Shown here: piece by piece, positions 4,354 through 51,157 of the stretch
Numbering within the stretch: position 1 is the first letter of the stretch
Layout: each line of letters starts with the position of its first letter
Source: Alphaproteobacteria bacterium
GTDB lineage: Bacteria; Pseudomonadota; Alphaproteobacteria; Rs-D84
Reading direction: 5' to 3'
Assembly: GCA_017427405.1 (NCBI GenBank)
Contig: JAFRSV010000012.1
Coordinates: 5,103-69,102, forward strand
DNA length: 64,000 nt
Program-made: the position numbers and the translations under genes
Notes under the pieces: model-generated
The model's database searches: none
Seen by the model: the letters and a program-made list of their open reading frames with translations, nothing else
Told to the model about the DNA's origin: nothing

Positions 4354-5096
4354 TGACGCGATATAAAGTAATCTTGGAATACGATGGAACGAATCTGATT
4401 GGGTGGCAAGAAAACCGCCAAGGGCCGTCGGTGCAATCGTTGCTAAAAGATGCGATAGAAAAATTCTGCGGTGCGCGGCCCGATGTTGTTGGGGCTGGGC
4501 GGACGGATGCGGGGGTGCATGCGGTCGCAATGGTTGCGCATTTTGATTTGGATTCCGATGCGGATGCAAATACTGTTATGCGGGCGATGAATTTCTATCT
4601 GAATGATGCGCCGGTGTCGGTTTTGAACTGTGAAATTGTATCTGGGGATTTTAATGCGCGTTTTTCGTGTGTGATGCGGCACTATAAATACATAGTTCTA
4701 AATCGTTCTGCGCCGCCGGTATTGGATAAGAATCGCGCATGGTGGGTGCCACGGAAATTAAACATCAGGAAAATGCGTGATGCGGCGCGGCTTTTGGTTG
4801 GGGAACACGATTGGACATCTTTTAGGGCGTCACAATGCCAGGCCAAAAGTCCAATAAAAACCCTTGATTCTTGCCGTATAGAAAGAAAAGATGATTTGGT
4901 TGTTTTTGATTTTTCGGCGCGTTCGTTTTTGCATCACCAGGTTAGAAATATGGTTGGAACATTGGTTGAAATTGGTATTGGTGCTGATTACGATATAAAT
5001 GAAATCTTTGTAGCGCGCGACCGTTCGGCGGCGGGCGCAACCGCGCCGGCATGTGGGCTTTATTTTATTCAGGCCGATTATGCCACCACCGATTAG
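4353..5096 (+). CDS. truA: tRNA pseudouridine(38-40) synthase TruA
   Basis: YKVILEYDGTNLIGWQ N-terminus and GRTDAGVHA catalytic motif. TAATG overlap with the fmt stop. Confidence 0.9.
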   Translation: MTRYKVILEYDGTNLIGWQENRQGPSVQSLLKDAIEKFCGARPDVVGAGRTDAGVHAVAMVAHFDLDSDADANTVMRAMNFYLNDAPVSVLNCEIVSGDFNARFSCVMRHYKYIVLNRSAPPVLDKNRAWWVPRKLNIRKMRDAARLLVGEHDWTSFRASQCQAKSPIKTLDSCRIERKDDLVVFDFSARSFLHHQVRNMVGTLVEIGIGADYDINEIFVARDRSAAGATAPACGLYFIQADYATTD

Positions 5097-6996
5097 ACGG
5101 AATTTGAATCATCTTGCCAGATTGATATATTACACCACCGTTTTGTATAATTTTATTTGCACACTTTTCGGAATTTATATCAAAGTTTGATGCAATATAT
5201 TTTATGCGTGGGTTTTCACAAAGAGTCAAAAAGTTTTTAGAAAGTGATACAAAATTTTTGAAACAAACGATGTCAAAATTTTTTGCTGAAATTGTGTATA
5301 CGCCTGATTCCGCCGTAAAGCGCAAATTTTCTGTGCCGGGTCGTTCACCATTAAATTTCTTCCAATTATCAAATGCAAAGTAATTTCCACTGTCGTGTGA
5401 TTTGTTAAATTGTAGTTTTCCATCAATTTGTGTGGCGATAAGTTTGCGGTCAGAACTGATATAGAAAATGGGTTTTGGGTTTGCAGCACAAATTGTTATG
5501 CCTGTGGCAATAAGTAAAATTGCGCCAAATGGCCCGATATGCCTGGCGAAAAATTTTCTGAAACTTGTGTCATCTTTGATAAGGATTAAACACGCCAAAC
5601 CAGTGGTTATTAGTATAACTGCGGTGTTCGGTATGTTGCCGATTGTGATTTCTGAATACGGTATTTGTGATAATCTTTCGGCGATTGTGTATGCGTGGTT
5701 ATATATTATGTGCGCAATTTCCAAAGGCGCATGTATGCCGACCAATGCGCATATTGTTCCGATAATTACAAGTGGCATTATGATAAAAGAGAATATTGGC
5801 AAGAATATAATATTGCCGATAATGCCATAAATTGGAATTGTTCCAAAGTGTAAAATTATAAACGGTGCGGTGAACACTGTTGCCACTAATGCGGTTAAAA
5901 CCGCCGTATAGAGATATTTTAATGCTTTGAAATTTGGTGTTCGGGGCTTTATGTTTTGCCACAACCAAATGATTCCGAATATTGCGGCAAAAGATAATTG
6001 AAACCCCGCGGTCATTACATAATATGGATTGAAAATCATAATTGCAAAAAGTGCAATTGATATCATGCGTAATGATAATGCGTTGCGTCCAAACATAAAT
6101 GCCACCATAACAAGCGTAGACATAATAAACGCACGAAGTGTCGCAACGCCGGCGCCGGATATAAAAATATACCCAAGTAAACCAATCCATGTACAGGCAA
6201 GGGCAGGGATACGCGCAGGAACATGGCGAACAAGGGGTGGAATTAGTCTGAATATAAGATAAAATAATATGAATAACCAACCGCCGATAAGTGTCATGTG
6301 ATAACCACTGATTGACCAAATGTGTGCCATGCCATTTGTTGCCCATGTGTCGCGATGACAATCGGGCAGGGCGTTTTTATAACCCAAAACAAGACCATCT
6401 GTTAAAAAAGATTTTGATAATTCGTGTATATGTTCGCGAACGCTGTATACGGCGGAATCCGGCGTATAGATAATTTTTATGTCGCGCAAATATCCGGTTG
6501 CAGAAAGGTTTTTGAAATACATATGCCTTGCGAAATCAAATCCATGTGGTATATCGGCGGGTTTTGGTTTGAACAGGCCGCCGTTGCCGGATATGGTGTC
6601 GCCAACTTTTATATCGATTGTGTCCGTTGTTGATACGCGCACTTTCCCAAAGTTTTCGGTGCACATATATATTTTTGTCTTTTCGCCACCGGTATCAATT
6701 TCTGTTACGCGTCCCCTGATTTCCGTGCCATGTATGTCGTGGCGCAGCATTGGAACATTTTTCATATGTGTGTATATGCCGGCGTATCCAAAACCCAATA
6801 TAAAACACGCGACGATTGCAAAAAATGGTCGCCGCCGCAGTGCGATTATTGCGGAAACACCGATTATAGACATAATTGCAAGTGTGGTAATCTGTGGTTC
6901 GTTAAATAATGAAAAATAAAGTGCGATACCGAACGCCGTCACAATCGGTGACCATAAAAATAAATTTTCGCGTTGATTATACAGAAATTTTTTCAT
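5065..6996 (-). CDS. comEC: ComEC/Rec2 family DNA internalization channel protein
   Basis: 643 aa polytopic membrane protein with a ComEC-like core. The 3' end overlaps convergently with truA. Confidence 0.8.
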   Translation of the reverse strand: MKKFLYNQRENLFLWSPIVTAFGIALYFSLFNEPQITTLAIMSIIGVSAIIALRRRPFFAIVACFILGFGYAGIYTHMKNVPMLRHDIHGTEIRGRVTEIDTGGEKTKIYMCTENFGKVRVSTTDTIDIKVGDTISGNGGLFKPKPADIPHGFDFARHMYFKNLSATGYLRDIKIIYTPDSAVYSVREHIHELSKSFLTDGLVLGYKNALPDCHRDTWATNGMAHIWSISGYHMTLIGGWLFILFYLIFRLIPPLVRHVPARIPALACTWIGLLGYIFISGAGVATLRAFIMSTLVMVAFMFGRNALSLRMISIALFAIMIFNPYYVMTAGFQLSFAAIFGIIWLWQNIKPRTPNFKALKYLYTAVLTALVATVFTAPFIILHFGTIPIYGIIGNIIFLPIFSFIIMPLVIIGTICALVGIHAPLEIAHIIYNHAYTIAERLSQIPYSEITIGNIPNTAVILITTGLACLILIKDDTSFRKFFARHIGPFGAILLIATGITICAANPKPIFYISSDRKLIATQIDGKLQFNKSHDSGNYFAFDNWKKFNGERPGTENLRFTAESGVYTISAKNFDIVCFKNFVSLSKNFLTLCENPRIKYIASNFDINSEKCANKIIQNGGVIYQSGKMIQIPSNRWWHNRPE

Positions 6997-22385: not shown

Positions 22386-22740
22386 GTGTAAGTGTTAGTG
22401 GCTAGTGTTAGTCCGTCACGACCGCGGTGCGGTCATGCCGCGACGGGTGTGCGGGGCAACGCCCCGCGTTTTTTGCAAAATTCCAGAGACGCGTCACCCC
22501 GCCGAAGGGCGGGGCCCAGGCCGAGCGTAGCGAGGACTTGCTCCGCAGGAGATTTTTCATTGTGAAACAATGAAAAACATAAATGTCTGCGACGCAGGTG
22601 CTCACATACGTTCGCACTGGATCCCGGCCTTCGCCGGGATGACGGCACTCTGGAATTTTTGCACAAGAAACCAGTGTAATGCACTGATTCCACTATCCGC
22701 TTACACCAACACTAAAAAATCGCCGTTTGGCGATTTTTTT
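22386..22740. repeat. Nested composite of palindromic repeats, bounded by inverted stop-rich heads and ending in a bidirectional terminator
   Basis: Head gtgtaagtgttagtggctagtgttag (22386..) against inverted ccactatccgcttacaccaacactaa (22690..22715). An inner unit at 22475..22662 is bounded by inverted GCAAAATTCCAGAG/CTCTGGAATTTTTGC. Includes a family-B unit at 22619..22644 and the hairpin AATCGCC-gttt-GGCGATT with A/T runs at 22714..22740. Confidence 0.8.
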
Positions 22741-22744
22741 ATCC

Positions 22745-22996
22745 TTGCCCCGATTCGCAAATTTTGATAGTATCTAGGTGAACCAAGATGGGAATCTGGT
22801 TCAGGGACGTAGAACATCCCGTGTTTGTGCGGCACAAAAGTGTCGTAATCTGTTTATGGTGCTTTTGTGCCATTTCCCTGGCTGTTATTGGTCGGGGTGC
22901 CACGTAAGTGGGGGTATTCACAAACATGCCTGTTCTAACGCCCTGACCGTCCTGTTTTTGGTGACGGTTTTTTAAAATAAAACAGGGAGTAAACAG
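22745..22996 (+). promoter_or_regulatory. Structured leader copy 1: promoter, uORF, three-strand switch, terminator
   Basis: TTGCCC, 17 nt, TAGTAT (22745..22773). uORF 22788..22907. Strand 1 CCCTGGC 22876..22882, strand 2 GGTCGGGG 22890..22897, strand 3 CCCTGACC 22941..22948. Terminator GACCGTC/GACGGTT plus T-run at 22945..22973. RBS and ATG at 22997. Confidence 0.6.
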
Positions 22997-24028
22997 ATGA
23001 GGAAAATAAATTTATTCAACCGTAATATAAATTCAGCGTCATACCGCGGCAACGGGTCTCGCAAAAATGTGCCGTCATTCCGCGGAAACGTGGAATCTCC
23101 GCGGTATTGTAGAGAATCGGTCTGCGGTAAAACTGACGGGATCCCGGCTTTCGCCGGGATGACGAGAGGAAAGCGCGCTATGATGGCGAAAATATGCGGG
23201 ATGACGATGATTGCGATTACGGCGTTATTTGCCACGCCGTCATTCGCAACGCCAACGGAATTGGACAAGAAAACCGTTGCATCCAAGGCCTATGTCGACA
23301 CGAAACAGGACAAAATCGAAACCGGGTTGGTGGAGTTTAATGGCAACCCAGAACTTATGTTGCCGGCGATTACGACATATGATTCTACAAGTGGTTTGGT
23401 TGGTAATAGAATCGGTATTTTGGACCAGGAAACTGTTGCAAGTGATGAGGGTACTTTACGCATTTATAGCTATGCATATGACTATGGTTCCGAAATGGAC
23501 AATTTTGTTCCAACCGTTCGTGCCGTGGCGGATGCGCTTCAAGACGTTCAATGGTTTCCCTTTTCCTGGAACAATAACGTATTCCCCGCTGCAATCGACG
23601 CATATAGTGTGACTTTTGACCCGACATCAACACATGTAAACGGAAATTGGCCATATAATCAACAAAACTATTTGGTTCGTGCCGACACATTTGCAAATTC
23701 CCTTGCCCTGAAACAAAATAAACTGCCAGAACTAGATACTAACTTAGTGCTTGGGCAAGCTGGTAAAAGTGTACTTGCGCCAACCACGGCTGGCAATGTG
23801 ACACAGGTTGCACTTTGGGATGCCGATGGGGCAGAACCAGACGCATGGGATGTGGGTACATATTTCTCGGATGCTACCGCAGATGAACGTAACGCGATTA
23901 ATTACTCTATTCCAACCGTCGGTGCAGTAGCGGTCGGTCTTAACCAAAAACAAAACAAAATGGTATGCGCCGGTTGGGACAGTGATACGCACACCGATGA
24001 ACATTGTTGGTTGTGGAGTATAGAGTAG
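22997..24028 (+). CDS. Secreted protein paralog 1 (unknown function)
   Basis: Signal-like IAITALFATPSFA. The next ~100 aa are near-identical to the 28949 gene (TELDKKTVASKAYVDTKQDKIETGLVE...). Shared C-terminal C-x(11-12)-CWLW. Residues ~5-60 are encoded by in-frame family-B repeats. An alternative internal start lies at 23180 (MMAKICG, RBS GAGAGGAAAG). Confidence 0.65.
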   Translation: MRKINLFNRNINSASYRGNGSRKNVPSFRGNVESPRYCRESVCGKTDGIPAFAGMTRGKRAMMAKICGMTMIAITALFATPSFATPTELDKKTVASKAYVDTKQDKIETGLVEFNGNPELMLPAITTYDSTSGLVGNRIGILDQETVASDEGTLRIYSYAYDYGSEMDNFVPTVRAVADALQDVQWFPFSWNNNVFPAAIDAYSVTFDPTSTHVNGNWPYNQQNYLVRADTFANSLALKQNKLPELDTNLVLGQAGKSVLAPTTAGNVTQVALWDADGAEPDAWDVGTYFSDATADERNAINYSIPTVGAVAVGLNQKQNKMVCAGWDSDTHTDEHCWLWSIE

Positions 24029-24224: not shown

Positions 24225-24518
24225 TTACAATTCCCCATACATTGCGTTGAATAATTTTATCAATAATTCTGTGTTTTCGATGTCGGGAAACGACAGCATT
24301 GGTTTGGCGCCGGGGTATGGAATTTCCGGTGTTGCATTCGGGATAATTTTTTGTGCCGCCGTGGTCGGTTTAATTAGCAACCGGTTGTCATAAATTCCGC
24401 CGATGATTTTCCCGCGATAGTAAATAATGTATTCGCCCATCATCGCGCGATATGTTATGTCGGGCAACGCGGATAATTGCGTAAGCACGAAATCTAAAAA
24501 TTCTTTGCTTGATGGCAT
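24225..24518 (-). CDS. TfoX N-terminal domain protein
   Basis: 97 aa. YRAMMGEYIIYYRGKIIGGIYDNRLLIK matches the TfoX_N pattern. The longer ORF to 24575 runs into the ruvC repeat. Confidence 0.65.
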   Translation of the reverse strand: MPSSKEFLDFVLTQLSALPDITYRAMMGEYIIYYRGKIIGGIYDNRLLIKPTTAAQKIIPNATPEIPYPGAKPMLSFPDIENTELLIKLFNAMYGEL

Positions 24519-24574
24519 GCAACCAATATAACAATAATCGAATATAAAAGCAATTTTATAAAACTGTTTTGCCA

Positions 24575-25102
24575 CTACCCCCCGGCGGTTCCGCCGGACC
24601 CCTTCGCCAGCGAAGGGGATAATAGTTCGAATCGGGTTGTGTTGGCGTGGGCCAGGGCGATTGCGATGGCATCGCTTTCGTCCGCGGTTTTGGGGTTTGC
24701 GGCGGGCAATAAAATTCGCACCATTTTATCGACCGCGGTTTTATCCGCATGACCCGCACCGGTTAGAATTTTTTTTACTTTGTTTGGTTCGTATTCGAAC
24801 ACCGGAATTTCACGCACAGACACCGCAACCATTGCCGCCGCGCGCGCATGGCCCAATATCAATGTCGTTGTCGGATTTTTATTCACAAATGTTATTTCCA
24901 TACTGCATTCATCGGGTGAAAATGTTTCGCAAAGTTTTGTGACACCGTTGAATATAATTGCAAGCCGTTCGGGCAGTGCACCGGTTTTCTTGGGCAAGAT
25001 AACACCACTGGCCACATATTTTCTTTCGTTGCCGTTTGTGTCGATGATTGCCCATCCAGTATGTAAAAGCCCCGGGTCGATTCCGAGTATTCGTTTCGTC
25101 AT
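24575..25102 (-). CDS. ruvC: Holliday junction resolvase RuvC, with C-terminal tail and stop codon supplied by a repeat
   Basis: ILGIDPGLLHTGWAII N-terminus and a DESDAIAIALAH catalytic region. The last ~15 codons plus TAG lie in the family-A unit at 24572..24619. Confidence 0.92.
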   Translation of the reverse strand: MTKRILGIDPGLLHTGWAIIDTNGNERKYVASGVILPKKTGALPERLAIIFNGVTKLCETFSPDECSMEITFVNKNPTTTLILGHARAAAMVAVSVREIPVFEYEPNKVKKILTGAGHADKTAVDKMVRILLPAANPKTADESDAIAIALAHANTTRFELLSPSLAKGSGGTAGG

Positions 25103-27368: not shown

Positions 27369-28559
27369 ATGGCCAAAGATAAATATATCTCTATGCGTGA
27401 TTCACTTAGTGGGTTTTCGTTCGCAAATCTTGGTATTTTTACTGGATTTGCCGATGGTATTTATAATGCCGTTTATTCATTGGTTATTTTGGAAATTTTT
27501 ATGAATTCCGCGGTTGTTGGTGTTTATGTTGCGATTTATTCGGTGTTCTGTATGATTGTTGCGTTATTCGCACATGAGATTTTTCGCCAATTTTCCAAGA
27601 CCAAGGTTTTCTATTTCGCACTGCTGATGTTGGTTGTGTGCTATGCGATGATGGGTTTTTCCGTGTTGCCACGAACGTTTATTGTTTTGGATTACACCAG
27701 TGGCTTTGCAATCACGCTTACCGCGATGTTGGTGCCACTGTTTATGTCAGATTTTTCGCGTGATGTTGGTATGGCGCGGCTAAATTCGCGGTATCATTTG
27801 TGGATGAATATTGGTGCGCTGTTTGCGCCGATGTTGGCGGTGATTGTTGCAACCCGATTCGGTAATCGGTCGGCGTTCTTTTTGTCATCGGCAATTTATT
27901 TGGGGGCGTGGGTGTTTTTTAGGTATTTTCATTTAACCCAAGAAGACAAAGTTATAAAACCCGTTAGCCCGCGGCGGACGGTGCGTGCGCTTTGGCGTAA
28001 TACAGTTGAATTTTTCAAGACGCCCGGAATGACACGTGCCTATATTGTGAATTTTGGTTATTATTCGTTGCGGGCGATGCGGTTTTTGTATGTTCCGATT
28101 GTGGTGATTGAATCAGGCTTTACCAAGGATACATTGGGTTTGGTTTTAAGTATCGGGATTGTGCCGTATTTGATTTTATCCGAAATTATGGGGCGTTTGG
28201 TGCGAAAATTTGGAAAAAGTATATGGTTGGTTTTGGGTTTCGGTTCGTTTGCGGCGTTTTCGGTATGGGCGACATTTGCGACCGGTTTTCCACTGCTTGC
28301 CATATTTGTGTTGTGGCAGATTTCCGGCGCCCTGATGGAACCGGTGCATGATTTGTTATTCTTTGATGGAACAAAGCAGGCGCAACAGACAAAGTTTTAT
28401 GGTGTGTTTCGCACAAGTTGCAATTTGCCAAGTGTGATTGCACCCGGTATTGGCGCAGCATGCATCGCGGCGTTCGGAACAACCGCGGCGGTGTGGTGGG
28501 TGACGGCCATAATAGGCGTGATTTCGATTGCGGTATTGATGGTAAGAAAAAGAGTGTAA
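27369..28559 (+). CDS. MFS transporter
   Basis: 396 aa, about 12 hydrophobic segments, two-halves architecture. Confidence 0.8.
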   Translation: MAKDKYISMRDSLSGFSFANLGIFTGFADGIYNAVYSLVILEIFMNSAVVGVYVAIYSVFCMIVALFAHEIFRQFSKTKVFYFALLMLVVCYAMMGFSVLPRTFIVLDYTSGFAITLTAMLVPLFMSDFSRDVGMARLNSRYHLWMNIGALFAPMLAVIVATRFGNRSAFFLSSAIYLGAWVFFRYFHLTQEDKVIKPVSPRRTVRALWRNTVEFFKTPGMTRAYIVNFGYYSLRAMRFLYVPIVVIESGFTKDTLGLVLSIGIVPYLILSEIMGRLVRKFGKSIWLVLGFGSFAAFSVWATFATGFPLLAIFVLWQISGALMEPVHDLLFFDGTKQAQQTKFYGVFRTSCNLPSVIAPGIGAACIAAFGTTAAVWWVTAIIGVISIAVLMVRKRV

Positions 28560-28561
28560 TT

Positions 28562-28643
28562 GTTAGTGGCTGGTGGTTATCCGTCACCGCTGGTGCGGTG
28601 CCGAGACTGCGCCGGGGCTTTGCCCCGGCTTGGTGTTTGTGCG
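28562..28643. repeat. Post-stop element (stop-rich head plus two hairpins), left direct repeat of the 1.3-kb cassette
   Basis: gttagtggctggtggttatccgtcaccgctggtgcggtgccgagactgcgccggggctttgccccggcttggtgtttgtgcg. The 43-nt core 28595..28637 is identical to 29915..29957. Confidence 0.9.
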
Positions 28644-28709
28644 TCTGGTCGCGACGGAGCGGTAGCGAAGACGGATGCGCCCGTTTTTTGTTGCCGATAC
28701 TTTTTTCGC

Positions 28710-28948
28710 TTGTTTTTTATACCCATGTTTTGATAAAATATTTATATCGGTGGGTGTTCCATCGATGGGGTGTCAAGACCCGTGGTTCCGGATGTCCGTG
28801 GGGACAAAAAACACCTCCAACCCAGGGTGGTTGGAGGGCGGTGAATATAAAGAATAAACCCACTATTTTCTCGGAACATAGTCTTGAACCTCCAACCACT
28901 TGAAGTGAATTCGGTGGTTTTTTGTTACATAAAAAAGGAGGAAAATAT
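28710..28948 (+). promoter_or_regulatory. Structured leader copy 2: promoter, 5' hairpin, uORF, three-strand switch, terminator
   Basis: TTGTTT, 18 nt, TAAAAT (28710..28739). Hairpin TCGGT/ATCGA at 28747..28765. uORF 28765..28857. Strand 1 CCTCCAACC 28814..28822, strand 2 GGTTGGAGG 28829..28837, strand 3 CCTCCAACCAC 28889..28899. Terminator AACCAC...GTGGTT plus T-run to 28923. RBS AAGGAGG. Confidence 0.7.
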
Positions 28949-29878
28949 ATGAAAAAATTTATCGCGTTATCTGTATTTGCAACATTGTTTACAATGCCGT
29001 CATTTGCGGAATCAACGGAATTGGACAAGAAAACCGTGGCATCTAAGGCATATGTCGATACAAAACAAGATAAAATCGAAACCGGGTTGGTGGAACTTAA
29101 TGGGATTATGTTGCCGGCGATTACGACATATGATTCTACAAGTGGACTTGTTGGTAATAAGATAGGTATTTTGGATCAGGAAACAATTGTAAATGATGAA
29201 TTCAGCTTACGTAATTACGGTTCTGATGGTGGCTATAGTTCCGAAATGGATAATTATGTTCCAACCGTTCGTGCCGTGGTAGAAGGATTGGGGGGCAAAC
29301 AAGACATCCTTCCGGGGGCATGGACAGATACAATAAGTGTTTACGCGATGGCCTCTACCGGTGGGCAAACGATTGATTTGACCGCGACCGCGGGGGAAGT
29401 TGACCCACGTTATATCACTGCGGGTGGGTCGCAACCACTTACCAAAAAATCCGGGGCGGATAATGTTATATTGTATATCAATGGAACAAAAACATTGGCG
29501 CAGTATCAAACATCAAACTTTGGTGGAACCGGTGAGGACGCAACCGTAGGTCAAAAATATATCAAGGGTGCGTTGGTGTCGTTGGAACTGCTGAAAGATG
29601 TGTACAGTGCGTTGCATAATGAAATTCAAAATGCAACCCCAACCGGCACGCCGAACACACTTGCAAATTATGGTGCAAATGGCGCGCTGGGCAATGGGGT
29701 TGCGACCGCAAATGCGCCAACGCATAATGCGACAACCGGCGAATTGGAAAACGGCGCAAATATCGCAACCATTGCCGCCGTCGACACCCGCCAGAAAAAA
29801 CGCACCTGTGCCGGGTATGAAACCGGGCATGAAAATGATCCGGATTATTGTTGGCTTTGGGATTTTCCAGATGATTGA
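28949..29878 (+). CDS. Secreted protein paralog 2 (unknown function)
   Basis: Signal peptide MKKFIALSVFATLFTMPSFA. The N-terminal ~100 aa and the C-terminal CAG...CWLW are shared with the 22997 gene. The central ~180 aa are unrelated. Confidence 0.75.
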   Translation: MKKFIALSVFATLFTMPSFAESTELDKKTVASKAYVDTKQDKIETGLVELNGIMLPAITTYDSTSGLVGNKIGILDQETIVNDEFSLRNYGSDGGYSSEMDNYVPTVRAVVEGLGGKQDILPGAWTDTISVYAMASTGGQTIDLTATAGEVDPRYITAGGSQPLTKKSGADNVILYINGTKTLAQYQTSNFGGTGEDATVGQKYIKGALVSLELLKDVYSALHNEIQNATPTGTPNTLANYGANGALGNGVATANAPTHNATTGELENGANIATIAAVDTRQKKRTCAGYETGHENDPDYCWLWDFPDD

Positions 29879-46698: not shown

Positions 46699-46833
46699 GT
46701 GTTGGCGCGTTCGTTTTTTTTCCTCGTCATACCGCGGAAACGCGGTATCCTGTCGTCATAGTTGAAGCCACCAGATACCGCTTTGCAGCGGTATGACGAC
46801 ACTAACACTACTACTACCACTTACCACTAACAC
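46692..46833. repeat. Post-stop composite: stop-rich head, two family-B palindromes, inverted head
   Basis: gtgTAAgtgttgg ... cgtcataccgcggaaacgcggtat ... gataccgctttgcagcggtatgacgac ... cactaacactactactaccacttaccactaacac. Confidence 0.8.
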
Positions 46834-46840
46834 TTTCTTC

Positions 46841-47084
46841 TTGCTTTTCGTTTTCATAATTTACTAAAGTGAAATTGTCGGCGGGTGTTCCGTCGATGGG
46901 GGGTAACGACCCGTTCATACGTTGCCAAAGTGGCGTAAAAAAACTCCAACCCGTGGGTTGGAGGGTCGTGAATAATATCGGGGATTCCCGATAAAATAAG
47001 CGCACAATACGTATGAATTGTCGTTAACCTCCAACCACTTGAAGTAATTCGGTGGTTTTTGTTTTGATACCAAGGGAGGATTCA
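46841..47084 (+). promoter_or_regulatory. Structured leader copy 3: promoter, 5' hairpin, uORF, three-strand switch, terminator
   Basis: TTGCTT, 18 nt, TAAAGT (46841..46870). The conserved block tcggcgggtgttccgtcgatgggg starts at 46878. uORF 46896..46994. Strand 1 CTCCAACC(C) 46944..46952, strand 2 GGTTGGAGG 46956..46964, strand 3 CCTCCAACCAC 47028..47038. Terminator AACCAC...GTGGTT plus T-run to 47060. RBS AGGGAGG. Confidence 0.7.
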
Positions 47085-48251
47085 TTGAGAAAAATCATTG
47101 TTGCAATTTGCGGAATGTTCATAACCATCATTTCTTTTGCAGCACCTGGACATTATGCAACACCAGATGGAACAAGCAACTTTGGTGATGCTTGGCATTT
47201 CAATGAAAACGCTACATATAATGTCGATATTGGAACAAGTTTTTACAGTGAACTGTCAGAACAGATATGTAAAAAAGAAGATTGTTCTGTAGAGTCGGGT
47301 CAAGGAACATATAATGATGAAAGAGCGATAGTATTGGATGTTGCGCGCGAGATATATAAAAATGGTGCAAAGTTTTGTACGACGCAAATTCAGGGCGCCA
47401 ATGCAAATGGCTGGTCTTATACCTGGATTGATTATTATAGCAATTCTAATTACGATAATAAATGCAGAGTTTATTGCAAACCCGGCTATGATCCAGAAAG
47501 TAATTGTGATAAAAAACTTTCAGGAGAAATCTGTGATGACCCAGATTATGGTATGTTTAATGAACATAAAATTATAAATGCTGGCAAAGGTGAAACAGGG
47601 CGATTTACAAAAGATATGGCTGTTTTTAGTGTTGATAATGAAACAGGAAGTAGTGATTCAAATCCGAAAACCGCAAAACATGTGGTGTTGGGTATAATAA
47701 AAAAAGATGAAAGTGGAAATGGGGTATTGGTTGCACCTATTCAAATTATCGCCAAAAGAGCGCATAATCCAATTGAAAGTTGGATATATAGTGCAAGTTA
47801 TCAAGAAAGTTTGGCTGCCGTAACTGTTTTATGCCCGCAAGGTTTTCAGGTTGATAATAGTGAAAAATGTGTTTTAACACCAAAATGTAAACAAGAACAA
47901 CAAGATGCCGAAAACGATGCGTTGCCAATGTGTAGTGGCTATGGGCATTATGATGCAATGCAACACACAATAAAAATACAAAGTACGGGTGGCAACAAAT
48001 GTAAGTATTATCGATGCAAAGAATCGAATTATGGATTTGAAAAAGGCAGTCAACATAAGTGTGTACCGTGTGGCGAGACAAAGAAATCTGGCGTTTTGCA
48101 CGGTGAGTGTAAAGTGTGCGCCACGGGGGAATTGTTTGATAAAAATGAGAGCAATGGTTGCAAAACGGCGCGAAAAATCACCAAAGAGAAAATGCGGGCG
48201 TGTTTTATGAAAACTGACCCCGATGAGTTTAAGACTTGTGTGAATAATTGA
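47085..48251 (+). CDS. Cys-rich secreted protein (unknown function, TTG start)
   Basis: Signal peptide MRKIIVAICGMFITIISFA. About 30 Cys, with CxxC-type spacing in the C-terminal third (KCVPCGETKKSGVLHGECKVCATGELF). Visibly AT-rich. Confidence 0.65.
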   Translation: MRKIIVAICGMFITIISFAAPGHYATPDGTSNFGDAWHFNENATYNVDIGTSFYSELSEQICKKEDCSVESGQGTYNDERAIVLDVAREIYKNGAKFCTTQIQGANANGWSYTWIDYYSNSNYDNKCRVYCKPGYDPESNCDKKLSGEICDDPDYGMFNEHKIINAGKGETGRFTKDMAVFSVDNETGSSDSNPKTAKHVVLGIIKKDESGNGVLVAPIQIIAKRAHNPIESWIYSASYQESLAAVTVLCPQGFQVDNSEKCVLTPKCKQEQQDAENDALPMCSGYGHYDAMQHTIKIQSTGGNKCKYYRCKESNYGFEKGSQHKCVPCGETKKSGVLHGECKVCATGELFDKNESNGCKTARKITKEKMRACFMKTDPDEFKTCVNN

Positions 48252-48257
48252 TAAAAG

Positions 48258-48318
48258 ACCACCCCGTCGCCGTTCGGCGCCACCCCTCCACAGGAGGGGA
48301 ACTTTACACCCACCACTA
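48258..48318. repeat. Family-A repeat unit
   Basis: accaccccgtcgccgttcggcgccacccctccacaggaggggaactttacacccaccac. Confidence 0.85.
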
Positions 48319-48385
48319 TTTCCTTTACTTTCGCTGTTTTTTTTTCTATTCTTGGTCCAGAAATAATGAAAAAGGAGAAAAATCT

Positions 48386-48712
48386 ATGGAAGAAACAGCG
48401 GTTGTTGAAACGGTACAAACGGTTGCGGATAGCGCGGCACAGCCCGCACAGCAGGGCAGTTGGAGTGGTTTGTTGCTTTACTGTTTGATTGTGTTCGCGG
48501 TGATTTACTTGTTTATGGTGCGGCCTAATAAAAAGCGTATGGCTGAATATCAAAAGATGGTGGACAGTATTCAGGTTGGCAATCGTATTCTTGCCGCCGG
48601 AATTTATGGAACGGTTAAAAAAATCGGCGAACGGACGATTGAAATGGAAATCGCCCCCGGCGTTGTGATAGAGGTTAGCAAGAACGCCGTCGCAAGTGTA
48701 GAGGCAAAATAA
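48386..48712 (+). CDS. yajC: Preprotein translocase subunit YajC
   Basis: Single TM followed by FMVRPNKKRMAEYQKMVDSIQVGNRI...GIYGTV, the YajC pattern. AAGGAG RBS. Confidence 0.88.
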   Translation: MEETAVVETVQTVADSAAQPAQQGSWSGLLLYCLIVFAVIYLFMVRPNKKRMAEYQKMVDSIQVGNRILAAGIYGTVKKIGERTIEMEIAPGVVIEVSKNAVASVEAK

Positions 48713-48725
48713 AAGGGTTGTGCAG

Positions 48726-50282
48726 ATGTTAAAAAAATTGCTGATTGTTTTTGTGGCGATATTTGGTGTGTTGCTTTCGGTGCCGACAATGTTTCCGAAC
48801 ACGGCGAAGTATTTCCCGTCGTTTATGCACCCGATATCGTTGGGGTTGGATTTGAAAGGTGGTGCGCAGTTGTTGCTTGAGGTTGATACCAAAACGATGT
48901 TCGATGAAAAGTCGGTGCAACTGTATGACGAAGTGCGCAGTGCGATGATTGACCGGTCAAAGGGTATGATTCGTTTTTCGGGCCTTAAAAATGTCGATGG
49001 TGTGGTGTCGTTGGTTGTGCGCGAAGATGACGAAGTGTCCAAGGCCAAGGGACGGTTGAAAAGCGTGCTGGGTGATACGGTGGATATTTCTTCGTCGGGA
49101 AATACAATCACACTTTCGTATTCGGAAAAGCAAAAGGAAGAAATGATTCAGGATGCCTTGGCGCGCAGTATCGAAATTGTGCGGCGGCGTATTGATGCAC
49201 TGGGGACCAAAGAACCGTCGATTCAAAGTCAGGGCGGAAAATATATCATGGTGCAATTGCCGGGTGTTGATAATCCGGAACATATCAAGGAATTGATTGG
49301 AAAGACCGCAAAGATGACCTTTCATTTGGTAAATGAAAATGTCACGCCGGAACAACTGGCGTCGGGTGTTGCGCCGGCGGGAACAGAGTTTTTGCCGTAT
49401 ATGGAAAGCCCGTGGTCGCGTGTGCCGGTCTATTCACGTATAGAGGTTTCGGGTGAAAGTTTGAAAGATTCCCAGGCGGATTTTGACCAAAATAATATGC
49501 CGGTTGTGACGACAGTGTTCGATGCGACGGGTGCGCGGCGATTCGCAAAACTGACCACTGAACACGTGAATGAACGATTCGCAATTGTTTTGGATGGCCA
49601 AGTTTTGTCTGCACCGACGATTCGCGAACCAATTCCGGGTGGACGTGGTCAGATTTCCGGCGGATTCACATTACAAGGTGCGAAGGATTTGGCGGTGTTG
49701 CTGCGCAGTGGTGCGTTGCCGGCCCCGTTACAGGTTATCGAAGAACGCACGGTTGGTGCGGGGTTGGGCGCCGACACGATTGCCCAGGGCAAGGTTGGGT
49801 CGTTGGTTGGTGTGGCGTTGATTATGTTATTTATGATAATTGTGTATCGCGTGTTTGGCTTTATTGCGGACATTGTTTTACTGGTAAATTTGGCGATGAT
49901 TATTGGCGTGTCCGCGTTGATGGGCGCGACATTGACGTTGCCCGGGATTGCCGGTATCGTGTTGACGCTTGGTATGGCGGTTGACGCAAACATTTTGCCG
50001 TTCGAAAGAATTCGTGATGAAATTCGGTCGGGTTCAACACCGTTGCGTGCGGTTGATTCCGGATTTAATCGTTCGATGAAAACGGTGTTGGACGGTGAAC
50101 TTACGAATTTAATTTGTGCGCTTATTTTATTCCAATTTGGTGCGGGACCGATTCGCGGGTTTGCGGTGACGCTGTCCATCGGTGTTATCACAACATTGTT
50201 CACATGTATATGGTTGTCGCGCGTCCTTATCGATTGGTATATGCGTGGAAAAAATAAAAAAATTGGTTATGTAAAAAAGTAA
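48726..50282 (+). CDS. secD: Protein translocase subunit SecD
   Basis: SecD periplasmic domain (LGLDLKGG) and C-terminal 6-TM RND-like core. Confidence 0.93.
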   Translation: MLKKLLIVFVAIFGVLLSVPTMFPNTAKYFPSFMHPISLGLDLKGGAQLLLEVDTKTMFDEKSVQLYDEVRSAMIDRSKGMIRFSGLKNVDGVVSLVVREDDEVSKAKGRLKSVLGDTVDISSSGNTITLSYSEKQKEEMIQDALARSIEIVRRRIDALGTKEPSIQSQGGKYIMVQLPGVDNPEHIKELIGKTAKMTFHLVNENVTPEQLASGVAPAGTEFLPYMESPWSRVPVYSRIEVSGESLKDSQADFDQNNMPVVTTVFDATGARRFAKLTTEHVNERFAIVLDGQVLSAPTIREPIPGGRGQISGGFTLQGAKDLAVLLRSGALPAPLQVIEERTVGAGLGADTIAQGKVGSLVGVALIMLFMIIVYRVFGFIADIVLLVNLAMIIGVSALMGATLTLPGIAGIVLTLGMAVDANILPFERIRDEIRSGSTPLRAVDSGFNRSMKTVLDGELTNLICALILFQFGAGPIRGFAVTLSIGVITTLFTCIWLSRVLIDWYMRGKNKKIGYVKK

Positions 50283-50293
50283 GGGGTTTGGTT

Positions 50294-51157
50294 ATGAAAC
50301 TGCATTTTATGAAGTATCGGAAATTGTCGTATTGGATTTCGGGTGTGTTGATTTTGGGTTCTATTTTTTCACTCTGGTTCCGGGGACTGAATTACGGAAT
50401 CGATTTTGCCGGTGGTATTTCGATGGAGGTGACATCCGTCGAATCTGATTATACTGTTGATAAAATGCGTCATGATTTGGCGGCGTTTAATCCGGAATTG
50501 CAATCGGTGGACGATAATGCAATTCTGATTCGTGTTGGTTTGCCCAAGGGGGCGACCGATGCACAACAAAATGAACGCGTGCGTGAAATCAAGGATATTT
50601 TGGGGAATCGTGTTGAATATACCCAGGTGCAAATTGTCGGGCCAAAAATTGGTGGCGAATTGGTGCGTGGTGGTATTTGGGCTGTGTTGGTTTCATTTAT
50701 TTTGATGGCGGTGTATGTATGGATTCGCTATCGCGGTGGTTATGCGGTCGGTTCGTTTGTGTCGTTGGTGTTTGACTTTGTGTTGATGTTTGGGTTCTTT
50801 TCGGCGACGGGACTTGAATTTAATCAAACGGCGATTGCAATTATTTTGATGGGTGTTGGGTATTCAATTAATGACAAGGTTGTGAACTATGACCGAATCG
50901 ATGAAAATATAAAAAAGTATCATAAGATGCCGATGGATGAATTGATTGATTTGTCGGTCAATGAAATGTTGTCGCGAACATTGCTGACCAGTATTACAAC
51001 AATGCTTGCGTTGGTTGGACTTTATGTGTTTGGTGGATTGGCATTGCAAGAATTCGCGTTGGCGATGGCGTTTTCAATTGTGATGGGGACACTTACCAGT
51101 ATGTATATTTCAAATGTTATTTTGTATCACTTTAATTTGCGTGAAACAAAATACTAA
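50294..51157 (+). CDS. secF: Protein translocase subunit SecF
   Basis: GIDFAGG motif and a SecF 6-TM core. Confidence 0.92.
   Translation: MKLHFMKYRKLSYWISGVLILGSIFSLWFRGLNYGIDFAGGISMEVTSVESDYTVDKMRHDLAAFNPELQSVDDNAILIRVGLPKGATDAQQNERVREIKDILGNRVEYTQVQIVGPKIGGELVRGGIWAVLVSFILMAVYVWIRYRGGYAVGSFVSLVFDFVLMFGFFSATGLEFNQTAIAIILMGVGYSINDKVVNYDRIDENIKKYHKMPMDELIDLSVNEMLSRTLLTSITTMLALVGLYVFGGLALQEFALAMAFSIVMGTLTSMYISNVILYHFNLRETKY

Follow-up and report, generated by a model that had tools for sequence, protein, structure and literature searches.

A structured leader RNA family with attenuator-like alternative pairings in small-genome gut Alphaproteobacteria

The described RNAs closest to the leader reported here are riboswitches of the terminator/antiterminator type, especially the multi-copy c-di-GMP-I (GEMM-I) riboswitches. 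Like these, the leader is a 5′-UTR RNA in which covarying helices surround conserved bases, with an optional hairpin and GNRA-like loops; its 3′ fold overlaps an intrinsic terminator, and it occurs in many copies per genome, occasionally in tandem, before genes for surface or secreted proteins and regulators. It differs from c-di-GMP-I-type riboswitches in having no sequence or structure match in Rfam 15, in its closing helices, which total 13–16 bp and are predicted to be stable without ligand, in an additional upstream anti-antiterminator strand together with the two small alternative hairpins Pa and Palt, and in its narrow distribution (metagenome-assembled genomes, MAGs, of gut Alphaproteobacteria). 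Riboswitch-type leaders that act through intrinsic termination are uncommon in Proteobacteria. With the trp, his and leu/phe leader-peptide attenuators, the leader shares a four-strand logic directly before the gene, in which 1:2 pairing forms the anti-antiterminator, 2:3 pairing the antiterminator and 3:4 pairing the terminator. Unlike them, it is without a conserved leader ORF, Shine–Dalgarno sequence (SD) or regulatory codons, it adds long-range helices and a three-way-junction domain that is conserved, and the genes behind it are not biosynthetic.

Other leaders resemble it in single traits. A terminating default fold, with a weaker terminator-overlapping helix that needs stabilisation, is shared with BglG/RAT and ANTAR leaders, the three-hairpin scheme with an anti-antiterminator is shared with PyrR leaders, and the possibility that one trans factor controls a multi-gene regulon is shared with PyrR, BglG/SacY RAT, ANTAR and TRAP leaders. 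TRAP leaders carry 9–11 (G/U)AG repeats, and ANTAR leaders carry tandem hexaloop hairpins with A1/G4, the second overlapping the terminator. When the three leaders found here and the family consensus were inspected by eye against these motifs from the literature, the PyrR loop ARUCCAGAGAGGYU, the 29-nt RAT and TRAP GAG/UAG repeats were all absent; the loops of P4 (3–8 nt) and Palt (6–18 nt) are both variable, and no ANTAR-like terminator overlap was seen. A candidate RNA-binding regulator was not found among the 30 of 58 long ORFs of the analysed DNA that were scanned, in which the matches were housekeeping families and GreA. The Mg2+ M-box, too, is a large leader of many helices, in which a compact state with long-range pairing sets the choice between terminator and antiterminator, and in the T-box, as here, the antiterminator is thermodynamically the weaker of the two structures and depends on an external partner. 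However, the leader has no Rfam match to T-box (RF00230) or ykoK, and it comes from a different phylum (Alphaproteobacteria). No specifier loop or T-box bulge was seen, the 2:3 helix being a continuous 9-bp duplex without a bulge.

A first-pass annotation, made from the sequence alone, had recognised no known riboswitch class in this leader, in agreement with the Rfam 15 scans. At gathering thresholds, nothing was matched in the whole window (the 64,000-nt stretch of contig JAFRSV010000012.1 that was analysed, from an Alphaproteobacteria bacterium of the Rs-D84 lineage), and only tRNAs were matched in 17 related loci of both subtypes; E-value scans of the three leaders gave chance-level scores only (≤18 bits, E ≥ 0.8, versus gathering scores of 35–71). 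Literature searches on Enterousia, on structured RNAs of microbiomes and on the motif strings turned up no description of the leader RNA (for PMC8040213, in the first 200 of 408 supplementary files). The window holds three copies, of which copy 1 (28710–28948) is composed of the following parts.

28710–28739, + strand: promoter, with −35 box TTGTTT (28710–15), an 18-nt spacer and −10 box TAAAAT (28734–39)
28746–28766, + strand: P0, the 5′-terminal hairpin of 8 bp, AUCGGUGG (28746–53) with CCAUCGAU (28759–66), loop GUGUU; from the MFE fold and covariation
28767–28782, + strand: Pa, GGGG (28767–70) with CCC(G) (28779–82); its loop contains the P1c 5′ strand UCAAGA (28773–78)
28785–28791, + strand: P2 5′ strand GUUCCGG, pairing with UCGGAAC (28871–28877)
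28794–28805, + strand: P3 hairpin, GUCC-GUGG-GGAC; from the MFE fold and alignment
28806–13, + strand: A-rich linker
28814–28838, + strand: P4 (anti-antiterminator), strand 1 CCUCCAACC (28814–22), loop, and strand 2 GGUUGGAGG(G) (28829–38)
28840–28860, + strand: P6, GGU (28840–42) with ACC (28858–60), around a conserved GAAUA...GAAUAA module
28863–28881, + strand: Palt, CUAU (28863–66) with AUAG (28878–81); its loop is the P2 3′ strand (28871–77)
28882–28887, + strand: P1c 3′ strand UCUUGA, pairing with 28773–28778
28889–28923, + strand: strand 3 CCUCCAACC (28889–97) and intrinsic terminator, AACCAC (28894–99) with GUGGUU (28914–19), U-run to 28923
28937–29878, + strand: SD GGAGG (28937–41) and gene from ATG 28949, encoding a 309-aa protein with a signal peptide

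The TTGTTT-18-TAAAAT promoter of the first-pass annotation was read at the same site, in the extended form TGaTAAAAT (28731–39, TG at 28731–32), and its −10 box is conserved: a TGnTAtAAT box is near-invariant 7–9 nt 5′ of P0 in 81 aligned homologues. The hairpin that follows exists, with 8 bp in place of the 5 bp that had been assigned to it; seven of its eight pairs are changed on both sides, with compensatory changes in 14–36 sequences per pair. The 9-bp hairpin (28814–22 with 28829–37) and the second copy of its 5′ strand at 28889 were found at the places given for them, give or take a few bases, and the terminator-like hairpin with its T-run was confirmed immediately before the RBS and ATG of the 28949 gene. 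The terminator stem covaries (one pair is AU:42/GC:21), and hairpin and U-run are present in essentially all 72 leaders analysed, so placed that the general layout of an intrinsic-terminator attenuator is found: a hairpin and U-run before an ORF, with a 5′ half able to pair upstream. Promoter and + strand terminator are kept in register in >68 homologues, and neither was called by a simple consensus scanner, as the −35 box matches 3/6 positions and the terminator loop exceeds 8 nt. The scanner did call a minus-strand terminator from P4 and the complement of the A-run, which we regard as a by-product of the A-rich linker, as there is no minus-strand gene to use it. What the annotation had overlooked are P1 and P2, which dominate the energetics, together with Pa, Palt and the P6 module.

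The annotation had also reported that the same architecture recurs twice in the window, at 46841–47084 and, in diverged form, at 22745–22996. These copies have the following parts.

46841–47060, + strand: leader copy 2 (type A), promoter TTGCTT (46841–46) and TAAAGT (46865–70)
46877–97, + strand: P0 of copy 2, followed by GGGG (46898–901) and the P5 hairpin (~46972–93)
46944–51, 46956–64 and 47028–36, + strand: strands 1, 2 and 3 of copy 2
47033–38 with 47052–57, + strand: terminator of copy 2, U-run to 47060
47074–48251, + strand: SD GGGAGG (47074–79) and gene from TTG start 47085, encoding a 388-aa cysteine-rich signal-peptide protein
22745–22974, + strand: leader copy 3 (type B), promoter TTGCCC (22745–50) and TGaTAGTAT (22765–73)
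22780–802, + strand: P0 of copy 3; Pa follows as GGGA (22804–07) with UCCC (22817–20)
22809–15 with 22932–39 and 22821–29 with 22919–27, + strand: P1c and P2 (the clamp) of copy 3
22876–83, 22890–97 and 22941–48, + strand: strands 1 (CCCUGGCU), 2 (GGUCGGGG) and 3 (CCCUGACC) of copy 3
22945–51 with 22963–68, + strand: terminator of copy 3, then U-run
22985–24028, + strand: SD GGGAG and gene from ATG 22997, encoding a paralogue of the 28949 protein (43% identity)

Copy 2 was fully upheld: the type-A covariance model scored copy 1 (28746–28923) at 171.6 bits and copy 2 (46877–47060) at 156.2 bits, the latter over the full model. Copy 2 differs from copy 1 by two compensatory pairs in P1c, and an optional P5 hairpin (46972–46993) is inserted in its P6 region. 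Within the window, CTCCAACC occurs six times (1.18 expected), always in the two type-A leaders, and a 20-mer and a 24-mer occur exactly twice each (0 expected). The kinship of copy 3 was upheld in another form. It was not recovered by the type-A model with default filters, and with filters off a search of 801 nt gave it a weak 14.5 bits (E=1.5e-4), the alignment being confined to P0, P1 and the terminator. It is a clear member of a distinct sister subtype, type B, which has the same helix order and is present in other genomes; in ten type-B sequences, 29 of 60 predicted pairs show compensatory changes. The folding z-scores of copies 1, 2 and 3 are −2.9, −5.4 and −5.5, respectively.

The homologous leaders that the annotation proposed to seek in relatives were found by covariance-model search and pattern scan. 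Elsewhere, type A gave ~90 full-length matches of 86–176 bits in a set of 119 loci; they come from species-level MAGs (~45 or more) from gut Alphaproteobacteria, many of them labelled Candidatus Enterousia. Candidatus Enterousia has been assigned to order Rs-D84, whose members are uncultured gut bacteria with genomes <1 Mb, without standard transporters and with many hypothetical membrane proteins (PMC12306168). A 16-mer scan for type B (596 Gb) returned mostly chance matches and five real loci; independently of the pattern search, type B was found upstream of 3/3 homologues of the 28949 gene that had been selected by protein, and six further loci carry it. Types A and B occur side by side in genomes, each consistent within itself. 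Three copies lie in the 64-kb window and at least eight in one red-deer MAG, and one locus is a tandem triple in which each unit has its own −10 box. In IMG/VR viral contigs the family is absent; a phage origin was considered and rejected, the 11 pattern loci there being plain palindromic terminators with no model match >19 bits. The leader thus belongs to a real structured RNA family, previously uncatalogued, in small-genome gut Alphaproteobacteria.

The association with downstream genes holds across the family. A same-strand SD and start codon follow strand 3 at a median distance of ~50 nt in 68/72 leaders; because this gap leaves no space for one, the downstream gene would have no promoter of its own. 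The first-pass description, a structured leader of about 200 nt upstream of signal-peptide genes, was borne out in the window with a length of ~190 nt, and elsewhere about one-fifth of the family members precede small HTH regulators, not secreted proteins. The genes behind family leaders encode lineage-specific secreted proteins, small XRE-type regulators and one EcoRI-type methylase. The 309-aa protein of the 28949 gene has no Pfam domain, and its 184 homologues, all from Alphaproteobacteria MAGs, are unnamed or 'hypothetical'. In the 22997 gene, 183 nt of in-frame palindromic repeat elements lie between the start and the signal peptide, which begins at an internal ATG (23180). The gene for the 388-aa protein is directly followed by yajC-secD-secF.

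Alignment of the homologues shows that the helices are under selection. In the proposed structure 91.9% of cells are paired and 436 cells carry double changes, versus 78.2% and 142 in shuffles; 0/500 shuffles reached any observed measure, and slid controls were 36–50% paired. On these sequence comparisons, covariation supports P0, the long-range helices P1 and P2, P3, P6 and the terminator, plus Pa and Palt. In P1c, 6/6 pairs have double changes (26–34 sequences at four of them), and 95% of cells are paired. P2 is variable in sequence, yet 7–9 bp are complementary in 63/66 leaders, with a mean duplex energy of −8.3 kcal/mol versus −3.6 kcal/mol in shuffled controls; in type B each of its eight pairs has 2–6 double changes among ten sequences. 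P3, which is much longer in type B and in homologues frequently has a GNRA-like tetraloop, has 80% of cells paired in a region where the MAFFT alignment is imperfect. The P6 column pair 139–181 is GC:31, UA:17 and CG:6, around near-invariant GA-AUA and AAUAA. Pa column pair 47–60 is GC:45, AU:11 and GU:6, and type B has GGGC/GCCC, GGCA/UGCC and GGGA/UCCC; when a G of Pa changes, its neighbouring C changes and strand 3 does not, and the rival pairing of this G with strand 3 would leave 17 unpaired. For Palt, column pair 188–207 is UA:39 and AU:24 with no one-sided changes, and other forms are CUAA/UUAG and GCAU/GUGC. The linker between the P2 3′ strand and the 3′ strand of Palt is 0 nt in 63/66 leaders, so P2 and Palt exclude each other sterically. 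Three further readings of the fold were rejected: a pseudoknot of the P0 loop with the A-rich linker is compatible with copy 1 only and is not conserved, a K-turn in P6 misfits in strand order and bulge, and the GGCGGUG of P6, which recalls ops/JUMPstart, covaries as a helix (GG.U/ACC versus UG.U/ACA) and so is not a fixed signal.

The mutually exclusive 1:2, 2:3 and 3:4 pairings of the first-pass annotation are supported, decisively so by three-way covariation between subtypes. Strands 1/2/3 read CUCCAACC/GGUUGGAGG/CCUCCAACC in type A, ..GGAGU with ACUCCAACC in a type-A variant, and CCC(C/U)GAC/G(G)U(C/U)GGGG/CCC(C/U)GACC in type B; the search pattern itself prescribed strands 1 and 2 for type A, which makes their invariance in that set uninformative, and their covariation is read from three type-A variants and ~10 type-B sequences. 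Because the three strands co-vary in this way, both the 1:2 and the 2:3 pairing are under selection. The 2:3 pairing comprises 7–10 bp and covers the first 4 nt of the terminator stem, which thereby overlaps strand 3. It is stronger than 1:2 by 0.6–7.3 kcal/mol in 12/12 correctly parsed leaders; automated parsing misplaced the terminator in 3/15 (copy 2, L049b and L248), which were read by eye. A trans-acting RNA carrying GGUUGGAGG appears unlikely, since types A and B coexist self-consistently and CTCCAACC is found nowhere else in the window.

Energy calculations predict that the RNA alone prefers the terminator (OFF) state. The fold forced to contain the antiterminator is a median of 13.8 kcal/mol worse than the MFE, and the MFE of nascent prefixes contains P4, not the antiterminator, in 71/72 leaders. 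With the P1/P2 clamp in place, the gap at the decision point is 11.9 kcal/mol; blocking the 5′ strands of the clamp reduces it to 1.7 kcal/mol, and the antiterminator is then the MFE in 21%. The clamp is thus worth ~10 kcal/mol, and without it the antiterminator is approximately isoenergetic with the anti-antiterminator. Because the energy models never form the antiterminator unaided, it is from covariation (of 2:3, Palt and Pa) and only from it that the ON fold is drawn.

We conclude that the leader is probably a cis-acting transcription-attenuation RNA of a new family, riboswitch-like or factor-dependent, that is off by default. Transcription would start just 5′ of P0, and the RNA would then adopt one of two folds. 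In the OFF fold, the clamp of P1c and P2 would close a multi-helix domain with P3, P4 (1:2) and P6, leaving AACC of strand 3 free to enter the intrinsic terminator before the SD and start codon, so that the downstream gene is not transcribed. In the ON fold there would be local hairpins only: the Pa loop would hold the P1c 5′ strand and the Palt loop the P2 3′ strand, and the 2:3 helix, as antiterminator, would use up the 5′ half of the terminator while closing a three-way junction in which P6 and Palt take part. Termination and readthrough at the leader terminators are model predictions. Because the RNA alone is predicted to prefer OFF, we infer an effector that shifts the balance towards ON; this putative small ligand, ion or protein may stabilise the conserved 3′ antiterminator domain or hinder the clamp, and the genes behind the leaders, for secreted or surface proteins and small HTH regulators, would thereby be switched on as one regulon. 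Riboswitch-like traits are the conserved bases of the junction and internal loops, the GNRA-like P3 loops, the optional P5, the multiple copies per genome and the tandem triple. Besides the antiterminator that the energy models never form unaided, further points speak against this attenuation reading: the clamp strands vary, so a sequence-specific factor cannot target the clamp directly; P1 and P2 together are far longer than the ligand-gated P1 of typical riboswitches; and the regulated genes offer no metabolic hint of a ligand.

The same clamp could serve a switch of opposite sign, although we consider this unlikely. In such an OFF-type riboswitch, a ligand would bind the closed pseudoknotted junction (Pa/P1c/P2 with P3, P4 and P6) and lock the clamp, leading to termination; without ligand the clamp would form too slowly, and strand 3 would displace strand 1, giving readthrough. 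Pa and P1c can make an H-type pseudoknot (2-nt loop 1, 6–7-bp stem 2, 0-nt loop 2), the P1c/P2 junction has conserved bases (ACCC[G/U]U, AUAG-U and AAC), the clamp decides the outcome energetically, and the P1c 3′ strand is made only 1–2 nt before strand 3, which implies a very short time window. However, a clamp predicted to be stable by ~10 kcal/mol without ligand is unlike the short P1 of known OFF switches, and the strongest sequence conservation lies in the 3′ antiterminator-junction domain, not in the clamp.

More doubtful is a constitutive element without sensing, either an independent ~180-nt sRNA gene with a leaky terminator or a fixed attenuating 5′ module for low expression. The selection on the 2:3 pairing and Palt, which would be roleless in a single fixed fold, argues against it, as does the dependence on readthrough of the downstream genes without their own promoter (68/72); a 2:3 helix consistently stronger than 1:2 is sensible only if displacement sometimes occurs. 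Such an element would account for the predicted termination of the RNA alone, for the promoter and terminator of each unit, with separate −10 boxes in the tandem triple, and for the typical sRNA 3′ end in which a terminated RNA would end.

The attenuator geometry that the first-pass annotation called classical does look so, and the ribosome-mediated mechanism that goes with it, in which a ribosome translating a leader peptide over strand 1 would release strand 2 to pair with strand 3, is very improbable. ATG ORFs do run through strands 1 and 2 in copy 1 (28765–28858) and copy 2 (46896–46976), and a ribosome could block the variable clamp strands without sequence recognition. These ORFs, however, read strand 1 in different frames, have no preceding SD and no run of regulatory codons, and an ATG ORF crosses strand 1 in only 18–33% of the 72 leaders per frame, with no conserved frame or start. 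A P0 base pair dictates where the ATG stands, and the alignment, read by eye, shows a different triplet there in a sizeable minority of homologues. Because there is no conserved leader peptide, a ribosome is unlikely as the sensor. Finally, a repeated DNA element without RNA function (mobile promoter cassette, MITE or recombination site), which the multiple copies, possible tandems and palindrome-rich genomes might suggest, is hardly credible, as the stems vary yet stay complementary (the double-change excess above), the unit is strand-specific and always lies between a promoter and the SD of a same-strand gene, terminal inverted repeats or target duplications were not seen, and viral contigs in IMG/VR lack it.

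In summary, an off-by-default attenuation RNA remains the favoured reading, and its design is unusual: two competing helix sets are both kept by covariation, a long-range clamp sets the outcome, and 2:3 is slightly stronger than 1:2. Tentatively, and with less confidence than in attenuation itself, the leaders may form a riboswitch class not described before, or a novel RNA-binding regulator may target them. They would sense one global signal, such as an ion, a second messenger or a metabolite supplied by host or partner. With several to dozens of leaders in each sub-1-Mb genome, this would switch all of the variable surface and secreted proteome, and the small HTH regulators, of the obligately dependent Rs-D84 bacteria. 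The many lineage-specific genes behind one leader family would constitute a large regulon, and this would indicate the signal that governs interaction with the host or partner. If the global-signal reading is true, RNA-based attenuation would be the main regulatory layer of a reduced genome.

On direct reading of 28500–29300, 46700–47300 and 22600–23200, every element that the first-pass annotation had listed in the leader of the 28949 gene (copy 1) was present, the one exception being the length of the first hairpin, which does form but has a stem of 8 bp (28746–53/28759–66) and not 5 bp. The promoter is composed of TTGTTT (28710–15), an 18-nt spacer and TAAAAT (28734–39) preceded by TG. The 9-bp hairpin pairs CCUCCAACC (28814–22) with GGUUGGAGG (28829–37), and the AACC of a second CCUCCAACC (28889–97) opens a terminator-like hairpin (AACCAC 28894–99/GUGGUU 28914–19) that is followed by a U-run, GGAGG (28937–41) and the ATG at 28949.

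Elements of the leader (coordinates of copy 1)
7–9 nt 5′ of P0: extended −10 box of the promoter, conserved in homologues
28746–66: P0 hairpin, double changes in 7 of 8 pairs
28767–70 (GGGG)/28779–82 (CCC(G)): Pa, its loop holding the P1c 5′ strand
28773–78/28882–87: P1c, double changes in 6 of 6 pairs
28785–91/28871–77: P2, tested sequence by sequence
28794–805: P3 hairpin
between P3 and P4: A-rich linker
28814–37: P4, strand 1 paired with strand 2
28840–42/28858–60: P6, enclosing a conserved GAAUA...GAAUAA module
at the P6 region of copy 2: inserted, optional P5 hairpin
28863–66 (CUAU)/28878–81 (AUAG): Palt, its loop being the P2 3′ strand
28889–97: strand 3
end at 28923: terminator

All six occurrences of the 8-mer CTCCAACC in the window (1.2 expected) fall within copy 1 or copy 2 (46841–47084), and longer conserved blocks occur exactly twice each (0 expected). 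Folding z-scores of the three leader regions against shuffles were −2.9, −5.4 and −5.5. On the minus strand, P4 and the complement of the conserved A-rich linker mimic an intrinsic terminator (28814–28837, 46944–46963), and no minus-strand gene is placed to use it.

A scan for CTCCAACC-N3-8-GGTTGGAGGG in one genome per species returned at least 119 loci; among the matches listed, about three quarters are true whole-leader homologues, the sources are gut, rumen or faecal MAGs, several genomes have multiple loci, and the records bear the labels Candidatus Enterousia, 'Alphaproteobacteria bacterium' or 'uncultured Rickettsiales'. Genomes of the host lineage, order Rs-D84, are <1 Mb, and its members are presumed to rely on other organisms (PMC12306168). 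A covariance model and a search of relatives had been proposed as a check, and the model built from 68 sequences found at least ∼90 full-length leaders (86–176 bits) in the pattern loci, including copies that the pattern had missed. Its scores were 171.6 bits for copy 1 and 156.2 bits for copy 2, the claimed recurrence. Neither the pattern nor the model found leaders in IMG/VR viral contigs. In agreement with the earlier statement that no known riboswitch class is matched, an Rfam 15 scan of the window at gathering thresholds gave no match, E-value scans of the three leaders gave chance-level matches only, and in 17 related loci Rfam matched tRNAs alone. No description of the leader RNA was found in literature on Enterousia, on microbiome structured RNAs or under motif strings. 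The leader RNA is a new family that is not in Rfam.

The third copy (22745–22996) had been described as a diverged form of the same leader. It has the same helix order, but belongs to a sister subtype, here type B, copies 1 and 2 being type A; the window contains two type-A leaders, one type-B leader and no further copies. The type-A model aligns 22767–22982 over its full length but scores it at only 14.5 bits (E=1.5e-4; 801 nt searched, filters off), and P0, P1 and the terminator are the only parts that match. Relatives were found through the P0 sequence of the third copy (loci L018, L121, L161, L168 and two in L189). When loci were instead chosen by protein alone, as homologues of the 28949 protein with 30–46% identity (P0079, P0109 and P0053), a type-B leader was present in the intergenic region just upstream of all three. 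RNAalifold of ten type-B sequences gave the type-A helix order, with compensatory changes in 29 of 60 predicted pairs.

The type-A helices were tested on the 68-sequence alignment with 500 shuffles and slid-partner controls. Standard pairs filled 91.9% of cells (78.2% in shuffles) and both-side changes 436 cells (142 in shuffles); no shuffle attained any observed pairing measure, and sliding the partners lowered pairing to 36–50%. Double changes occur in all three pairs of P6, one pair of the terminator stem is AU in 42 sequences and GC in 21, and one pair of Palt is UA in 39 and AU in 24, with zero one-sided changes. A Pa pair is GC in 45, AU in 11 and GU in 6; the rival pairing of its covarying G with strand 3 left 17 sequences unpaired. 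P2 was too variable for MAFFT and was therefore tested per sequence: it forms 7–9 bp in 63 of 66 leaders, with a mean of −8.3 kcal/mol (−3.6 in shuffled controls).

The mutually exclusive 1:2, 2:3 and 3:4 pairings (P4 as anti-antiterminator, antiterminator and terminator, respectively) proposed earlier are borne out by the three strands, which change together between subtypes. Type A has CUCCAACC, GGUUGGAGG and CCUCCAACC as strands 1, 2 and 3, and in three type-A variants strand 2 becomes ..GGAGU and strand 3 ACUCCAACC jointly. In type B the strands are CCC(C/U)GAC, G(G)U(C/U)GGGG and CCC(C/U)GACC, so at least two positions have changed on all three at once. Because the two types share genomes and each is internally consistent, strands 1 and 3 pair with strand 2 of the same molecule, and a shared trans RNA is unlikely to be their partner. 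For a blindly chosen segment just 5′ of and into the terminator stem, the search for a best partner led, in the 12 correctly parsed leaders, to the 3′ arm of the hairpin that precedes it (7–10 bp), and in all 12 the 2:3 duplex was stronger than 1:2, by 0.6–7.3 kcal/mol. P2 and Palt, which both covary, are likewise mutually exclusive, since the linker between their 3′ strands is 0 nt in 63 of 66 leaders. Pa could form an H-type pseudoknot with P1c, or else be part of the open state. These pairings are most simply read as two exclusive folds, OFF and ON, both under selection.

Energies were computed with thermodynamic models, not kinetic simulations. Forcing the 2:3 helix cost the full leader a median 13.8 kcal/mol relative to the MFE, and in nascent transcripts ending 0–12 nt past strand 3 the MFE contained P4, not the antiterminator, for 71 of 72 leaders. 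The gap at the decision point was 11.9 kcal/mol; with the 5′ strands of the clamp (the long-range helices P1c and P2) unavailable it was 1.7 kcal/mol, and the antiterminator was the MFE in 21% of leaders. The RNA alone should therefore terminate; in these models the clamp should determine which fold forms, and the switch should be poised in its absence.

In the proposed mechanism, the OFF fold would comprise P1c, P2, P4 and the terminator, and the ON fold Pa, Palt and the 2:3 antiterminator, which would close a junction with P6 and Palt. OFF would be the default, and an effector (a small ligand or a protein) would turn the leader ON by favouring the antiterminator fold or hindering the clamp. 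That the leader is a cis-acting transcription attenuator is highly probable, and the first-pass interpretation was essentially right; the full statement, with a default-off state and an effector-driven ON direction, we consider reasonably likely. An OFF-type riboswitch, in which a ligand locks the clamp, appears unlikely. Ribosome-mediated attenuation is disfavoured because an ATG-initiated ORF crosses strand 1 in only 18–33% of leaders per frame, no start or SD is conserved, and strand 1 is read in different frames in copies 1 and 2. A constitutive sRNA or fixed attenuating module would leave the maintenance of the 2:3 pairing and Palt unexplained, and a DNA-level repeat is contradicted by compensatory changes in the stems and by the strict orientation that the element keeps towards genes.

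For 68 of 72 type-A leaders, a start codon preceded by an SD lies on the same strand, a median of ∼50 nt past strand 3, so transcription of the gene requires readthrough. By a crude hydrophobicity rule for N-termini, which probably overcounts, 52 of 68 products are signal-peptide-like; our estimate is ∼50. Nearly all of these have no Pfam domain; the domains present in a few are Listeria-Bacteroides repeats, an Ephrin-receptor-like domain and a Gly-rich domain. Small XRE-type HTH proteins of three families make up about 15 of the products, and a single product is an EcoRI-type adenine methylase. In Alphaproteobacteria MAGs, 184 relatives of the 28949 protein were found, all unnamed or 'hypothetical'. 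We take the N-terminal motif of this protein family, SKAYVDTKQDKI, to resemble tail-fibre proteins, and phage receptor-binding proteins may be the origin of the secreted proteins. In L248 (41–3993), phage-type terminase, portal (Head-tail_con) and Bbp19 genes immediately precede a homologue of the 28949 protein that has a type-B leader, with a weak VirB8 match nearby. The window neighbours of the leaders are core genes (secB, recA, ruvC, greA, mutL, yajC-secDF). Behind copy 2 (47085–51157), the cysteine-rich secreted-protein gene overlaps the start of the yajC-secD-secF cluster on the same strand, so copy-2 readthrough might also feed transcription of protein-export genes.

Short palindromic repeats (e.g. 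CGTCATTCCGCGGAAACGTGGAATC, GGGATCCCGGCTTTCGCCGGGATGACG) occur throughout these genomes, in the window at 23003–23175, 22600–22660 and 46700–46790, and 3′ of the leaders in L033, L075, L018, L121 and L168. In the gene behind the type-B leader of the window, a 183-nt block of them lies in frame between ATG 22997 and the signal peptide; this gene may now start at 23180 or have a 61-aa N-terminal extension. Just 5′ of leader promoters are stretches dense in CACTAAC/GTTAGTG-like repeats (46795–46835, 28560–28580 and 22690–22720 in the window; L248, L249). At type-B loci this position also has a hairpin in which AAAAATCGCC and GGCGATTTTTT enclose a loop, with an A-run on one side and a T-run on the other. 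Such sequences may act as insulating terminators or represent a further repeat family. L107 has, on the minus strand at 5556–6163, a tandem array of three complete leader units 5′ of one small HTH-like gene, and every unit has a −10 box of its own; unit 1 has no clear terminator, and in unit 2 the terminator stem has moved 2 nt from strand 3. A ComEC-type competence protein (5065–6996) and a small protein whose TfoX_N domain match is weak (24225–24575) hint at DNA uptake in this reduced genome, unrelated to the leaders.

The leader finding is real, and the family is akin to known attenuators and riboswitches: it works like terminator/antiterminator riboswitches and factor-dependent antitermination leaders and shares the four-strand logic of the trp attenuator. 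The features that define leader-peptide attenuators and T-boxes are absent from it, as are, in a by-eye comparison with features described in the literature, those of ANTAR, PyrR, TRAP and RAT targets. Four features are distinctive: the long, ligand-independent-looking clamp, the upstream anti-antiterminator strand, two small hairpins with clamp strands hidden in their loops, and the presence of many copies in a reduced genome, where they form a regulon of lineage-specific surface proteins.
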